Positions 1,590 to 6,952 of a stretch of 64,000 nt of DNA are shown here, in pieces. Below the pieces are notes generated by a model. It saw only the letters and a list, made by a program, of their open reading frames with translations, ran no database searches and had not been told where the DNA came from. This stretch comes from a virus (taxonomy: Duplodnaviria > Heunggongvirae > Uroviricota > Caudoviricetes). The stretch lies in IMG/VR virus record IMGVR_UViG_2718218133_000001; one strand, 5' to 3'. A program made the position numbers and the translations under genes. Every line of letters starts with the position of its first letter. Within the stretch, counting starts at the first letter, position 1.

Positions 1590-2201
<612 letters not shown>

Positions 2202-2350
2202 CATTTGTTCATTGAGTGGGAATATTGCCGTCCGGGAGTAATATGGTATCATTAAGTTAGAGTAGGTAGTGTAGATGGAATGAGGAGTATCATATGGTTA
2301 TCACACAATCAGGTTGCTTTGAGTCAGGTTGTTTTGAGTAAAACAATAAA

Positions 2351-2377
2351 ACGCCCTTTAATGGGCGTATTTTTTTA
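2351..2377 (+). terminator. hairpin (ACGCCC..GGGCGT) followed by T-run; left boundary of the AT-rich island
   Basis: stem-loop plus T7 run seen in sequence. Confidence 0.4.
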
Positions 2378-2386
2378 GGATTTAAA

Positions 2387-3280
2387 ATGCATTCTTTACA
2401 GAAATACATAAAACATAAATATACTCACTTAACTTTTTTTCTCTCATTACTTTTCTTCATGATATTTGAATCTCGAGAAGATATTATCAAGAAAACATTA
2501 TCTTTTTCTCTCGATGAAGTTTTACCATTCTTAATGTTTGCGTTCTTCTCCGCCTTTATCAGCATAACGATAAAGGAAAAGATAGCAAAAAAATACCCAG
2601 AAACAAACGATGGGATTACCATTATAGCTTTAATCTTTGGTGTAACGCTATATAGTGTATTTATATTATATTATTTATATGGTGATGTATACCAATCCAC
2701 AATTGCTTTACTTATAAGTTCTGTGCTACTTGGTTCTGGGTGGTGGGTTCAGGCTACTGTGAGTAAAGTAGCCGCAAGAAAATCACACACCTTAAATACA
2801 CTAATGAATCAAAGAAACAGTGAATTATTTCACAAAAAAGTCTCATCGGTAGCGAATACGTTCGGGCTTAGAAAAACCATAAATGAAATTATTGCCAAAC
2901 AAAGACTTATCCCAAATGATAAAGATTTAAAAAATAAAAAGGTCCATGATAAATACATATCAGCAGGTAATGATATGTTCTTCGTTCTTAATTATTATGA
3001 GTTTATCTGTTCAGGAATAATAAATGGAGACTTTGATGAAGATTCAATGAGAGAATGTCTTGGACAAATTGTTCCAGGTCTCGAAGTTAGAGCATTTCAT
3101 TTTATAAGAATTGCAAGAGAAATTTCAGGGAGTAGCTGCTTCTGTAATTTTGTTGCTGTTTCAGATAAATGGTCTACTAATGGAGGCTCTCTTATTCTCA
3201 GACACGAGAAAGGAGAACCTGTGATCAATAACCTGACCCATTGCTTTGAAGAAACAGCCTGTTATAACACAACATCTTAA
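2387..3280 (+). CDS. integral membrane protein (about 4 predicted TM helices) with about 150-aa cytoplasmic C-terminal domain of unknown function; AT-rich cargo gene
   Basis: 297-aa ORF, AGGA RBS 7 nt upstream of ATG, hydrophobic N-terminal segments, strongly AT-rich codon usage unlike flanking phage genes. Confidence 0.6.
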   Translation: MHSLQKYIKHKYTHLTFFLSLLFFMIFESREDIIKKTLSFSLDEVLPFLMFAFFSAFISITIKEKIAKKYPETNDGITIIALIFGVTLYSVFILYYLYGDVYQSTIALLISSVLLGSGWWVQATVSKVAARKSHTLNTLMNQRNSELFHKKVSSVANTFGLRKTINEIIAKQRLIPNDKDLKNKKVHDKYISAGNDMFFVLNYYEFICSGIINGDFDEDSMRECLGQIVPGLEVRAFHFIRIAREISGSSCFCNFVAVSDKWSTNGGSLILRHEKGEPVINNLTHCFEETACYNTTS

Positions 3281-3331
3281 TATTTTGTAACCCATAATCG
3301 CTTTATGGGTTACGTTAAATTTGCAATAAAA

Positions 3332-3808
3332 TTAATCGCCGCGCTTTAAGCATCCATCGTTTTTAGCTTGTTGATATAATTTACTTAGCCCAGAAAGAGG
3401 AAATGTGGCAATTTTTTCATTATCAACATAAGCATCGATCGCATTAGCATTTGAATCTGCTGCATCTTGCCAAAAGGCATACCACCAAGAATCTCCAACC
3501 ATTGACCCAAGATTGCTAAAAGGGTATTGCTCACCATCTAATGTTAATACTATTTTACTCTTGTCAGCATTATACTCTTTTTTATTATTCGACGACCTTA
3601 GCAACAGGCCTAAACTACCGGCACTATCTGGTGATCCATACATGAAACCCATATCACATAAAAAACTTATCTTATCACCATTTTGATTATGGATTGTATA
3701 TTCTCTCCCCCCTCTATCTTCAATTACATTCCATTGTAGAGGATCAATTTTTGCAAATACTCCTGCTGAAATTAACGATACAAATAATAAAAACCATCTC
3801 ATATTCAT
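3332..3808 (-). CDS. secreted/periplasmic protein with N-terminal signal peptide (MNMRWFLLFVSLISAGVFA)
   Basis: 158-aa ORF in AT-rich island; signal-peptide-like N-terminus; 22 bp downstream of the membrane ORF on the same strand. Confidence 0.55.
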   Translation of the reverse strand: MNMRWFLLFVSLISAGVFAKIDPLQWNVIEDRGGREYTIHNQNGDKISFLCDMGFMYGSPDSAGSLGLLLRSSNNKKEYNADKSKIVLTLDGEQYPFSNLGSMVGDSWWYAFWQDAADSNANAIDAYVDNEKIATFPLSGLSKLYQQAKNDGCLKRGD

Positions 3809-3830
3809 TTTTTTCGCTTCTTATCTGTAA

Positions 3831-4181
3831 TTATTCTGCAATATCATTTGCCCATTGCACGGCAGCAAAATGAGTGCCCAAGCCACTCAGGAAAGCAATT
3901 ATTCCCAAAACAATACTAGCTGCTGTTGATTCAAACAAAGCACCAATGCTATAGCCAATAGCTCCCCATACTAAGCTAAAGACAATCATCAATGGTATTG
4001 CCAGAAATTTTATTCTTAAACTAAAAATCAGTCCAAGAAATGAACCGCCAAAGGCCCACCATGATTTAGACATTAAACCTATCAGTATTGACAGAATTCC
4101 TATTTCAATAAAGAGAATATTAGATTGCTCTTCATTGAATTTCGCATTTGTTACACCTTTACGAACATGTTCAGATGACAT
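3831..4181 (-). CDS. small integral membrane protein (about 3 TM helices)
   Basis: 116-aa ORF, hydrophobic stretches, AT-rich; forms a two-gene operon with 3332..3808. Confidence 0.5.
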   Translation of the reverse strand: MSSEHVRKGVTNAKFNEEQSNILFIEIGILSILIGLMSKSWWAFGGSFLGLIFSLRIKFLAIPLMIVFSLVWGAIGYSIGALFESTAASIVLGIIAFLSGLGTHFAAVQWANDIAE

Positions 4182-4327
4182 GATTAACTATCTCCAGCCA
4201 CAGATAAAACGCCTTAAAATAACATTTTGTAGCACAAAGTTTCACCATGCAATGGTCAAAGTCTTTGATCCATATCAATTAGAGTTATACATTTTAGTTG
4301 CATAGCTAATAATTTATACGGACACAA

Positions 4328-4344
4328 ATTGCTCTAATTATTTT
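4328..4344 (+). promoter_or_regulatory. C1 repressor operator (ATTGCTCTAATTATTTT), Op51-like, upstream of c4/icd/ant
   Basis: match to P1 C1 operator consensus ATTGCTCTAATAAATTT. Confidence 0.55.
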
Positions 4345-4539
4345 GTTTTTTTAGTTTCATATGCTACATTAACTCGCTTGCGTGCTAATGCATTTTCGGT
4401 TTATCCTAAACAAGCATCTTAGTAAAACGGATGCCGGGATTGGAACCCCGGATAATGCAAAAGGCGACACAGACGCCAAAAGCGTCTTTTTTATGTCATG
4501 CCATCGCACAACCATACGTAGCACATAGCTACGAGATCA

Positions 4540-4640
4540 ATGGTAGTGCTGGCTGGGCTGCCGAAAGGCAGGCCGGTTCCCTTTTGCGCCGGTAGTTCCA
4601 ACCCAGTCAGTGCTACCGCCATTGAGATTGGAACCTCACG
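4540..4640 (+). ncRNA. c4: probable c4-like antisense immunity RNA region (immI)
   Basis: position between Op51-like operator and icd as in P1; structured GC-rich leader; boundaries approximate. Confidence 0.3.
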
Positions 4641-4677
4641 CGGTAGCTCCTTAAATTAGCAAAAGGAGGCTGCCATT

Positions 4678-4899
4678 GTGGCTACTATCCCTACCCCAAC
4701 TCATCCTGAATTTATCTGGCGCTTTTACTCCTGCCAGAAACGTCACTATCACTTCGTTATTGCACCGACAGAAGATGAGGCTCGCTCTCAGCTTCCGGAT
4801 GCACCCTGTATTTTCTCTGCCCGCTTTTCTACCGATTCGCGCAATTCTCTCAGTTACTGGAGCCTCCCTGTTAACGCTTCTGCTCAGGAGGGACTATGA
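4678..4899 (+). CDS. icd: Icd-like cell division inhibitor, translationally coupled to ant
   Basis: 73-aa ORF with GTG start after AAAGGAGG RBS; stop overlaps ant start; matches P1 immI organisation. Confidence 0.5.
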   Translation: MATIPTPTHPEFIWRFYSCQKRHYHFVIAPTEDEARSQLPDAPCIFSARFSTDSRNSLSYWSLPVNASAQEGL

Positions 4900-5987
4900 G
4901 AACGTCATTAGTCACCCGTGAAGAGATGATCGAGGCAATTGAACAGCACACTGCCTGTATCAGTACCAGGGATATACCAGGCGTTATTGCCAACTACTTC
5001 ATGATCACCAAACAACTTTACCGGAGAAAGGACAAGAACGCGGTTCACCGTATCCTGTTGTCTGATATCCGCGAATACCTGCTCGAACAGGGTCATCTGA
5101 ATTACGCAACCGTCGCAGCCGAAGCACGCAAGGAGGCACACAGAATGAAAGCAAATAACGTTAAATTAGAAAAAATTCATGCACCTTCAGTTCAGGAATC
5201 AGAGCTGGTGGTTGCTCAAAATCAGCCTGATGAAATTCCCGTTCTGGAATGGCTGGGAGTACGTGTAGTGACAACTGAGACTCTTGCTAAGGGGTATGGG
5301 ACCGATGAAGCGAATATTCGTAAAAATTTGTCTCGCAACCCCGATCGCTTTGAAGAAGGTAAGCATTACTATCTCTTAACTGGTTCAAAATTAAAGGAAT
5401 TTAAAAGGCTAGTGACTATTAGTCACTTGGTTAGCAAATATACAAGTCAGGTAATTCTCTGGGCCGAGCGCGGCGCTGCACGCATGTCTAAGATCGTGGA
5501 CACAAATGAAGCTTGGGCATTCTTTGAAAAACTGGAAGACAGCTACTTCCGGCAAAAAGAACAGCAACCGGTCGCAATCCCCCAAACATTACCAGAAGCC
5601 CTACGCCTGGCTGCCGAGTTAGCAGAACAGAAAATGCAGTTGGAACAACAGCTGGTGGCCGCAGCCCCTAAAGTCGATTTTGCCGACCGGGTATCAGTGG
5701 CCAATGGAATCCTGATCGGGAACTTTGCAAAGGTCGTTGGACTTAAGCAAAACGCCCTTTTCTCATGGTTGCGCCAGAATGGCATTCTCATGGCTTTTGG
5801 AGCGCGCAAAAACGTACCGCGCCAACAGTACATCAACGCCGGGTATTTCACGGTGAAAGAAGTGGTGCTGGATGATGAAAATGGCTACCAGATACGGCTG
5901 ACGCCCCAATTAACGGGTAAAGGCCAGCAGTGGTTAACTCGCAAGCTACTTGATGCTGGTTTGTTAAAACCAGTAGCAATAGGTTAA
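4896..5987 (+). CDS. ant: antirepressor Ant (KilAC-type C-terminal domain)
   Basis: 363-aa ORF; C-terminal about 130 aa is paralogous to the kilA C-terminus. Confidence 0.7.
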   Translation: MRTSLVTREEMIEAIEQHTACISTRDIPGVIANYFMITKQLYRRKDKNAVHRILLSDIREYLLEQGHLNYATVAAEARKEAHRMKANNVKLEKIHAPSVQESELVVAQNQPDEIPVLEWLGVRVVTTETLAKGYGTDEANIRKNLSRNPDRFEEGKHYYLLTGSKLKEFKRLVTISHLVSKYTSQVILWAERGAARMSKIVDTNEAWAFFEKLEDSYFRQKEQQPVAIPQTLPEALRLAAELAEQKMQLEQQLVAAAPKVDFADRVSVANGILIGNFAKVVGLKQNALFSWLRQNGILMAFGARKNVPRQQYINAGYFTVKEVVLDDENGYQIRLTPQLTGKGQQWLTRKLLDAGLLKPVAIG

Positions 5988-6151: not shown

Positions 6152-6952
6152 ATGCAACAAACATTCAATGCGGATATGAATATATCAAACCTTCATCAAA
6201 ATGTCGATCCTTCAACCACTCTGCCTGTTATTTGTGGTGTTGAAATTACGACCGACCGCGCTGGCCGTTACAACCTTAATGCTCTACACAGAGCGAGCGG
6301 ACTCGGTGCCCATAAAGCGCCAGCTCAATGGCTAAGAACGCTGTCAGCCAAACAGCTCATCGAAGAGCTTGAAAAAGAAACTATGCAGAATTGCATAGTT
6401 TCGTTCGAAGGCCGTGGCGGCGGCACTTTTGCCCATGAATTGCTCGCTGTGGAGTACGCAGGCTGGATTTCTCCCGCGTTTCGGCTGAAGGTAAACCAGA
6501 CATTTATCGACTATCGAGCCGGAAGATTACAACCTGCTATTCCGCAGAGTCTCCCTGAAGCTCTCCGTTTGGCTGCCGACCTGGCAGAGCAAAAGCAACG
6601 GCTGGAGCAAAAAATGCTTATGGATGCACCTAAAGTCGAATTCGCCGAACGCGTTGCTACCGCCAGCGGGGTTCTAATCGGCAACTATGCCAAAGTGCTC
6701 GGCCTGGGCCAAAACTATCTCTTCACCTGGTTGCGTGATAACGGAATTCTGATCGCAACCGGTGAACGCAGGAACGTCCCCAAACAAGAATACATATCCC
6801 GTGGGTATTTCACCCTTAAAGAAACCGTGATCGATACAAGCAATGGAAGCAGGATTTCTTTCACGACTCGTATAACCGGCAAAGGTCAGCAGTGGCTGAT
6901 GAAGCGATTGCTTGATGCTGGTGTGCTGGTACCTGTCGCAGCAACGCGCTAA
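6152..6952 (+). CDS. kilA: KilA (KilA-N/Bro-N N-terminal domain + antirepressor-type C-terminal domain)
   Basis: 266-aa ORF directly upstream of repL as in P1; C-terminus paralogous to Ant. Confidence 0.65.
   Translation: MQQTFNADMNISNLHQNVDPSTTLPVICGVEITTDRAGRYNLNALHRASGLGAHKAPAQWLRTLSAKQLIEELEKETMQNCIVSFEGRGGGTFAHELLAVEYAGWISPAFRLKVNQTFIDYRAGRLQPAIPQSLPEALRLAADLAEQKQRLEQKMLMDAPKVEFAERVATASGVLIGNYAKVLGLGQNYLFTWLRDNGILIATGERRNVPKQEYISRGYFTLKETVIDTSNGSRISFTTRITGKGQQWLMKRLLDAGVLVPVAATR

Follow-up and report, generated by a model that had tools for sequence, protein, structure and literature searches.

What does a P1-like phage-plasmid carry at the position where phage P1 keeps its superimmunity (sim) genes, and what might that cargo do? 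We examined a 64,000-nt stretch (hereafter the window) of the Caudoviricetes record IMGVR_UViG_2718218133_000001. The 2.6 kb around the locus are 100% identical to E. coli plasmids (for example, NZ_CP023961), and the window belongs to a P1-like IncY phage-plasmid. We found that positions 2369-4227, in the hotspot between pmgC and c4, are accessory ('moron') cargo composed of two independently exchanged modules. One encodes a protein of 297 amino acids (aa; A297) and the other is an operon for proteins of 116 aa (C116) and 158 aa (B158). Based on gene order and similarity in related elements, the C116-B158 pair appears to be the distal part of a sim-type operon. Genomic context best supports a function in envelope-level superinfection exclusion, which we propose tentatively.

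Two modules of foreign composition in a variable slot

The GC content of positions 2250-4350 is 33.6%, compared to 46.9% for the whole window, making this the lowest 2.1-kb stretch in all 64 kb, and GC at third codon positions is 0.25-0.27 in the three genes compared to 0.48 in the flanking pmgC and ant1. A297 (2387-3280, plus strand) is convergent with two minus-strand genes, C116 (3831-4181) and B158 (3332-3808), the latter starting 22 nt downstream of the former. Ratios of nonsynonymous to synonymous substitution (dN/dS) were 0.15 for A297, 0.21 for B158 and 0.08-0.17 for C116, consistent with purifying selection, and therefore these are real genes instead of chance open reading frames (ORFs) of AT-rich DNA. 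To the left lie sit, pmgB, tub and pmgC, and to the right an isrK-like small RNA (sRNA), the C4 antisense RNA, icd, ant1, kilA and repL; P1 has simC-simB-simA, on the minus strand, in the same pmgC-to-c4 interval. A first-pass annotation, made from the letters of the window and its ORFs, had described a sharply AT-rich island at 2380-4200 in the sim position between the virion block and immI, with a gene for a 297-aa protein convergent with a two-gene operon for 116- and 158-aa proteins. Composition, ORF layout and position are all confirmed by our coordinates, while the single three-gene island that it assumed separates, by breakpoints and sister plasmids, into two modules.

Pairwise DNA comparison with sister elements (cited below, like other loci, by handle and coordinates) revealed sharp breakpoints at 2208/2209, 2368/2369, 3337/3338 and 4227/4228. 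The left anchor of the hotspot is pmgC (1590-2156, minus strand), the last gene of the tail-tube/sit virion block, and identity to P1 and P7 DNA is 96-99% up to 2208. At 2208/2209, P7 and the elements L028, L002 and L029 break off, and homology to P1 continues to 2368 through a P1-type spacer (2209-2368) that is kept, among the elements compared, only here and in P1. The spacer ends in a terminator-like hairpin (2351-2368, ACGCCCTTTAATGGGCGT) with T-runs on both strands. Module 1 (2369-3337, plus strand), bounded by the breakpoints 2368/2369 and 3337/3338, is a self-contained cassette with the A297 gene and, between the convergent genes, a hairpin with a 12-bp stem (3286-3314) that is probably a bidirectional terminator. 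Module 2 (3338-4227, minus strand, which is the sim strand) is the C116-B158 operon, a block that is 95% identical in L028 and 89% identical in L002 with different flanks. The AT-rich spacer upstream of C116 (4228-4413) is common to L002 but not L028 and presumably contains the operon promoter.

In sister plasmids, module 2 is kept and module 1 is swapped for a sim-strand gene encoding a 344-aa protein annotated as SH3-domain, with one hydrophobic segment. Across 5426 complete E. coli genomes, module 1 was present in 45, always on plasmids, and module 2 in 81 (82 of 83 places on plasmids), such that each is found in ~1% of genomes and confined to P1-like plasmids. The window's own arrangement occurs in only 24 of the 764 PLSDB plasmids that match its flanks. 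Elsewhere the slot is filled differently: P7 and many plasmids have genes for a lipoprotein and for a DUF5384 protein, each with an annotated signal peptide; p1303_95 has a secreted protein that we refer to as SimA-long (215 aa) and a YfjT-family protein (37% identity); E. coli pRHBSTW-00312_2 has SimA-long (212 aa), C116, B158 and the SH3/transmembrane (TM) gene; and a Salmonella P1-like element has SimA-long (222 aa), C116 (72% identity) and YfjT (28% identity). All cargo observed there encodes proteins that are secreted, lipid-anchored or located in a membrane, and SimA, SimB and SimC of P1 have signal-peptide-like N-termini as read from their translations. Published work counts the sim region among eight regions in which P1-like phage-plasmids vary and are low in GC (PMC9603915). 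Among the hallmarks of a moron, deviant GC, presence/absence polymorphism and terminator hairpins are seen here, and a convincing promoter was found for neither module.

A link to the sim operon

We then asked how this cargo relates to the sim genes themselves. That the three proteins might simply be conserved P1 Sim proteins, an outcome that the first-pass annotation had named as fatal to its idea, is not supported: BLASTP of A297, B158 and C116 against SimA, SimB and SimC gave E values of at least 0.3 or no alignment, and hhalign probabilities were at most 2.3%. The comparison of the locus among P1-like genomes, which it had recommended, places C116-B158 behind full-length SimA in sister elements. 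SimA-long, a secreted protein of 212-222 aa, heads the operon in three of them (L028:3734-4372, L029:2154-2801, L007:4234-4902). Over the first 40 residues of SimA-long, identity to P1 SimA reaches 92% in the two E. coli plasmids, compared to 56% over 39 aa in the Salmonella element. Homology of P1 DNA to the SimA-long elements resumes inside that gene, at position 7385 of L003, and P1 simA (L003:7393-7551, 52 aa) is therefore its 5' remnant, comprising the first ~46 codons. P1 SimB (L003:7054-7389, 111 aa) can be aligned, with 52% identity, to residues 52-137 of a D6 protein of 298 aa (L020:6802-7698) and stops where this alignment does; P1 simB may likewise be what remains of a longer gene. 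The classical sim locus looks like stacked leftovers of cargo replacement.

The same partners meet in other, unrelated sequences. A divergent 97-kb viral contig (L048) contains a DUF4431-SimA-like fusion, C116 (58%) and YfjT (31%), and on a metagenome contig a DUF4431-SimA-like fusion adjoins a C116 homolog (66%). Recurrence of the SimA-like/C116/YfjT association at 28-72% protein identity argues for a functional link. The C116-B158 pair belongs to the sim operon lineage. In L048 the trio is followed by a gene for a pore-forming colicin-like protein (PF01024, E = 8e-15) and, on the other strand, by one for a 178-aa membrane protein that is probably its immunity gene (L048:5060-6208 and 6234-6770), which would make L048 a phage-plasmid carrying a colicin. 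The island in the window contains no colicin gene.

B158 is a YfjT/YkfB-family protein

B158 is 28% identical to E. coli K-12 YfjT, from the cryptic prophage CP4-57 (BLASTP, E = 1e-11), and carries the NCBI annotation pipeline (PGAP) name 'YfjT/YkfB family phage-associated protein'. PF27224 is precomputed on P0024, which is 93% identical to B158, and on a Salmonella homolog, where it is labeled YfjT. Based on these matches, B158 is a member of the YfjT/YkfB family. Its signal peptide would be cleaved after MNMRWFLLFVSLISAGVFA and before K. The YfjT family is small, with 22 representatives among 1.84 billion proteins, and its alignment conserves W26, G33, C51, W109 and C153, of which Cys51 and Cys153 would fit a periplasmic disulfide. 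An AlphaFold2 (AF2) model of B158 (predicted local distance difference test, pLDDT, 85.7; predicted template modeling score 0.78) is a beta-sandwich with one helix.

We found no functional studies of YfjT in the literature, and the family is without known function. In K-12, a FliA promoter located within yafY drives ykfB, and deletion of ykfB leads to no motility phenotype (PMC4183435); a FliA-type promoter of this kind was looked for upstream of B158 and not found. In CP4-57, the ypjK-yfjS-yfjT cluster (L009:10446-11616) encodes a 78-aa membrane protein, an inner-membrane lipoprotein and YfjT, an envelope trio reminiscent of sim-type operons.

C116 is a mobile, probably inner-membrane protein

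Hydropathy gives C116 3-4 TM segments, which suggests a small inner-membrane protein. Its N-terminal motif, V6-R-K-G-x-T-N-A-x-F-N-E17, is invariant among homologs, and the protein matches phrog_15014. No Pfam family was found when C116 and 12 homologs were scanned, and whole-alignment scans of the C116 and YfjT families yielded no consistent weak Pfam matches. A single one of the 12 homologs had a weak match to Phage_holin_3_3 (the LydA holin; E = 0.045), far below threshold and not found in the others; the locus is not a lysis cassette, and a place for C116 among holins is not supported. Immunity proteins of pore-forming colicins are likewise small, with 3-4 TM segments, but homology to them is not supported (hhalign probability of 0.3% for C116 against the putative 178-aa immunity protein of L048).

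Homologs with 43-72% identity are found in Salmonella, Vibrio and metagenome-assembled genomes (MAGs) labeled Pseudomonas, Pseudidiomarina, Deltaproteobacteria, Bacillota and Oscillospiraceae. In two phages (L011:3212-3559 and L047:4001-4351), the homolog is located in the chaperone-to-tape-measure slot, where HK97 has its gene 15 exclusion moron (L051:204-392). Elsewhere homologs lie next to an integrase or an AAA_15/21 ATPase, or near ORFs that appear PIN-toxin-like by eye. Those in the MAGs labeled Bacillota and Pseudomonas (L023:3986-4351, L024:3986-4351) have as neighbors an nSTAND NTPase together with a DUF6602 protein, or a NERD-UvrD helicase; one homolog is found among metabolic genes. 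Among the distinct non-E. coli contexts examined, a YfjT gene stands beside C116 only in the Salmonella P1-like element and in L048. An obligate two-gene module of C116 and YfjT was rejected, as most non-E. coli C116 loci are without YfjT. The copies in MAGs labeled Bacillota and Pseudomonas are near-identical over the first ~50 residues shown, indicating very recent transfer or mis-binned contigs, and the taxon labels of MAGs with C116 may therefore be unreliable.

A297 is a DUF4760 protein traveling as lone cargo

PF15956 (DUF4760) matches residues 120-262 of A297 over model positions 13-141 of 141, with a score of 52.5 bits (E = 7.7e-14) where the cut-off is 25, and the RefSeq annotation is likewise DUF4760. 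The protein also matches phrog_21275, and related PHROGs are all of unknown function; a literature search found no functional studies of DUF4760. Two TM segments are clear from hydropathy (44-62 and 76-94), and two weaker ones (about 13-28 and 104-124) were read from the sequence by eye. Because Lys/Arg-rich stretches lie before TM1, between TM2 and TM3 and after TM4, the positive-inside rule places the C-terminal ~170 aa in the cytoplasm, and the DUF4760 domain is accordingly predicted to be cytoplasmic. The 22 closest homologs (30-64% identity) come from Erwinia, Citrobacter, Pseudomonas and metagenomes, and across them Q122, R131, H134, T135, N137, Q142-R-N-S145, N202-Y-Y-E-F206, D217 and C224 are invariant. 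An AF2 model of A297 (pLDDT 82.6) is all helical.

In the contexts examined, full-length relatives of A297 were always lone genes: between a lysis cassette (lysozyme, DUF2514) and an integrase at the end of Pseudomonas prophages, in Erwinia, directly behind the primase of a P4-like satellite and before integrase fragments, and beside an integrase on a metagenome contig. Sites of this kind are typical of morons and defense cargo (PMC9122126, PMC3594210). In the window, a GC-rich hairpin at 2351-2377 lies at the module boundary, 10 nt before the ribosome-binding site of A297. It leaves no promoter room inside module 1 and so may be an attenuator in a long 5' untranslated region (UTR).

For the individual proteins, the first-pass annotation was correct in calling B158 a 158-aa signal-peptide protein and C116 a 116-aa membrane protein. 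Its description of A297, with about four TM helices plus a 150-aa cytoplasmic domain, holds, with two clear and two weaker segments and a cytoplasmic side that follows from the positive-inside rule. Its statement that none of the three shows a recognizable motif was wrong for A297 (DUF4760) and for B158 (YfjT/YkfB). The membrane-plus-periplasmic pair that it saw in module 2 does consist of envelope proteins tied to sim-type operons, and the pairing is not obligate.

Proposed function and alternatives

Based on genomic context, we regard envelope-level superinfection exclusion as the best-supported reading of the island, and hold it with less than even confidence. P1 sim confers superinfection exclusion (PMC9177967, citing Kliem & Dreiseikelmann 1989); simABC is also non-essential and dispensable for plaque formation (PMC10695390). 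Exclusion is thus suggested because the cargo has slot, strand and operon organization in common with simABC, the only characterized occupant of the slot causes it and is dispensable, all other slot cargo consists of envelope proteins, and C116 homologs occupy the slot of HK97 gene 15, whose product is a proven superinfection-exclusion moron that resides in the inner membrane and blocks genome entry (PMC3594210). It is suggested, too, because the placement of P22 sieA mirrors the order virion block, sim slot, immI, because the operon partners SimA-long, C116 and YfjT recur in relatives, and because A297 homologs are lone cargo at integrases, a prophage end and a satellite primase. Foreign composition, own terminators, purifying selection and ~1% prevalence on P1-like plasmids point the same way. 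Module 2 would be expressed from the prophage and act in the cell envelope, where C116 in the inner membrane, B158 in the periplasm and, where present, SimA-long could hinder the tail tip or tape measure in bringing DNA through the periplasm and inner membrane. The result would be superinfection exclusion, by analogy with P1 sim, HK97 gp15 and P22 SieA. A297 is most likely a membrane-anchored anti-phage protein that acts by exclusion or abortive infection; it would function independently of module 2, with the invariant cytoplasmic polar cluster as its active or sensing site.

Several results weigh against this. None of the three proteins matched any of the 5027 models of PADLOC-DB v2.0.0 at E <= 1, NCBIfam gave nothing useful, and searches of the PDB by sequence and by profile returned chance-level matches only, with no informative structural neighbor. 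No sequence or profile similarity was found to any experimentally characterized exclusion protein compared: hhalign probabilities were at most 4.1% against P22 SieA, P22 and lambda SieB and lambda RexB, and below 6% over a set consisting of these together with P22 gp17, P7 upf50.0 and upf50.5, YpjK, YfjS, the L048 immunity-like protein and HK97 gp15. A tblastn search with SimA-long found nothing in the window, which has no simA sequence and so lacks that partner. A sigma-70 scan gave sites no more than in shuffled sequence and none well placed; the only such site upstream of A297, at 2225-2252, would put the hairpin at 2351-2368 into the 5' UTR. Some plasmids keep module 1 beside a truncated module 2, K-12 YfjT and YkfB are without known phenotype, and C116 is usually found without YfjT, including in MAGs labeled Bacillota or Oscillospiraceae, phyla without a periplasm. 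The first-pass annotation had suggested superinfection exclusion or abortive infection; its foreign envelope cargo at the sim position stands and has gained ties to sim operons and the gp15 slot, with no match to SieA, SieB, RexB or PADLOC; the function that it suggested is read from context.

A suicide mechanism is a further candidate. A297, C116 or both could permeabilize or depolarize the inner membrane once a phage is sensed, with DUF4760 or the N-terminus of C116 as sensor. Transmembrane proteins are commonly viewed as abortive-infection effectors (PMC9122126), and A297 combines TM segments with a cytoplasmic domain bearing an invariant polar motif. The lone-cargo positions of its relatives by integrases, at a prophage end and by a satellite primase would suit such a role, as would the defense-island-like neighbors of C116 (STAND NTPase, NERD-UvrD helicase, AAA_15/21 ATPase and PIN-like ORFs). 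However, PADLOC gave no match, similarity to RexB or SieB is absent, the window has no associated sensor gene, a periplasmic B158 is a misfit with cytoplasmic sensing, and the one characterized occupant of the slot, sim, acts by exclusion and not by suicide; we therefore consider abortive infection unlikely. We give a similarly low standing to lysogenic conversion, in which the genes would serve host fitness through surface properties, stress tolerance, or resistance to colicins, bacteriocins or serum, with no role in phage competition. Morons have diverse non-defense roles (PMC3594210), all products here are envelope proteins, and paralogs of the YfjT/YkfB type persist in K-12 cryptic prophages, with ykfB under a FliA promoter (PMC4183435); moreover, the L048 trio lies beside a colicin-like gene and one C116 homolog among metabolic genes. 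Set against this are the strong positional link to the sim operon and the gp15 slot, the lack of a motility phenotype upon ykfB deletion (PMC4183435) and the dissimilarity of C116 to the putative immunity protein encoded beside the L048 colicin-like gene.

Improbable, in our view, is a part in the phage's own cycle, whether in lysis timing (with C116 as a holin- or antiholin-like protein), DNA injection or virion assembly near the tail-tube/sit genes. Tail genes do adjoin the locus in the window and the C116 homologs of L011 and L047, and one of the 12 C116 homologs has the weak LydA match. Yet that match is far below threshold and not common to other members, either module is present in only ~1% of complete E. 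coli genomes, other P1-like plasmids have unrelated genes in the slot, and simABC is dispensable for plaque formation (PMC10695390). GC is also foreign, and transcription is opposite to or separate from that of the late operon. Very improbable is that the genes are decaying, non-functional leftovers of recombination at the hotspot. The locus is mosaic and contains remnants elsewhere (P1 simA, truncated module 2 in some plasmids), and SimA-long is gone from the window; nonetheless, the three ORFs are intact, dN/dS is 0.08-0.21 and residues are strongly conserved across distant homologs. Superinfection exclusion extends to a broader proposal, which we consider speculative and, taken as a whole, doubtful: SimA-long, C116 and YfjT/YkfB would form an unrecognized envelope-spanning exclusion system of P1-like and other phage-plasmids, with P1 sim as a recombined, partly degenerate derivative and yfjT and ykfB as stranded relatives, and the 4-TM DUF4760 protein would independently be a new single-gene, membrane-anchored anti-phage protein moving between P1-like plasmids, prophages and integrase-associated elements.

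Features to the right of the island

The immI region begins with an isrK-like sRNA (4414-4492, plus strand; Rfam RF01394, 58.5 bits, gathering threshold 50), an Hfq-binding sRNA that immediately precedes the C4 antisense RNA. The latter (4536-4623, plus strand; Rfam RF01695, 76.7 bits) is the right anchor of the hotspot and is followed by icd (4678-4899) and ant1 (4896-5987). A RefSeq coding sequence for a 39-aa 'ash family protein' (~4540-4659; L001:6441-6560) overlaps the C4 RNA and is probably an annotation artifact. DNA of the c4 region is nearer to D6 (93% identity), JL22 (89%) and RCS47 (86%) than to P1; for this region, megablast returned no match to P1.

Significance

The hotspot and its low GC were already known, and the genes are present in public plasmids, annotated as DUF4760 or hypothetical. 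What is new is that the cargo falls into two modules with exactly mapped breakpoints, that B158 belongs to YfjT/YkfB, that SimA-like, C116 and YfjT proteins recur together, that P1 simA, and probably simB, are what is left of longer genes, that C116 homologs can take a gp15-like position and that DUF4760 proteins with four TM helices travel as lone cargo. Clinical and animal E. coli commonly harbor P1-like phage-plasmids, which spread resistance genes, and the contents of their variable slots influence whether a given phage, therapeutic and transducing phages included, can enter the host. If these are exclusion proteins, they would make up new families, within a kind of function that is already known. 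A role in exclusion or defense would give a function to three uncharacterized families, including K-12 yfjT and ykfB, explain how the 40-year-old sim locus is built, as remnants that cargo turnover has stacked up, and turn the pmgC-c4 interval into a hotspot worth mining, small and clearly delimited, like those of P2 and P4. Should the genes not be anti-phage, the locus would still be a clean case of modular cargo replacement.

Comparison with known systems

Typical DUF4760 members are roughly 140-200 aa in length. A297 covers the whole domain with its residues 120-262, including the TM start of the domain, but A297 and its 22 closest relatives have about three extra N-terminal TM helices. With SieB of lambda and P22 and with lambda RexB, A297 shares N-terminal TM helices, a cytoplasmic helical part and, as a prophage gene, presumable expression from the prophage, whereas hhalign probabilities were at or below 4%. 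At the level of architecture, module 2 can be compared to T4 Imm and Sp, a membrane and a periplasmic protein directed against incoming DNA and lysozyme (PMC11436027); those are separate genes of a lytic phage, while C116 and YfjT are paired, though not obligately.

The K-12 proteins YfjT and YkfB, from the cryptic prophages CP4-57 and CP4-6, resemble B158 in length, signal peptide, Cys pair and prophage location. Small membrane-protein and lipoprotein genes (ypjK, yfjS) lie upstream of yfjT just as C116 precedes B158, but C116 is unrelated to YpjK and YfjS. HK97 gp15, of the YebO family, is like C116 a small inner-membrane product of a compositionally foreign moron, and C116 homologs fill the same slot in two phages; gp15 differs in having 62 aa and one TM segment, compared to 116 aa, 3-4 TM segments and an N-terminal motif in C116 (hhalign 0.75%). 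P22 SieA shows no homology to either membrane protein of the island (hhalign 2.1% for A297 and 0.3% for C116), but is itself a multi-TM inner-membrane prophage protein that blocks DNA entry. Its gene (L050:13336-13830) lies between the ejection-protein gene 16 and immI (mnt/arc/ant), mirroring the sequence of virion block, sim slot and immI in P1-like elements.

A further comparison is with P1 simABC, in which simC is the active gene. The window differs in having no simA, in the absence of detectable similarity of A297, B158 or C116 to SimA, SimB or SimC, and in the extra convergent DUF4760 gene on the opposite strand. What the two loci share is the slot itself, from pmgC to c4, and the status of a non-essential accessory. 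C116-B158 lies on the same strand as sim and is transcribed away from c4, B158 carries a signal peptide, and in sister elements the pair stands directly in line behind a full-length SimA.

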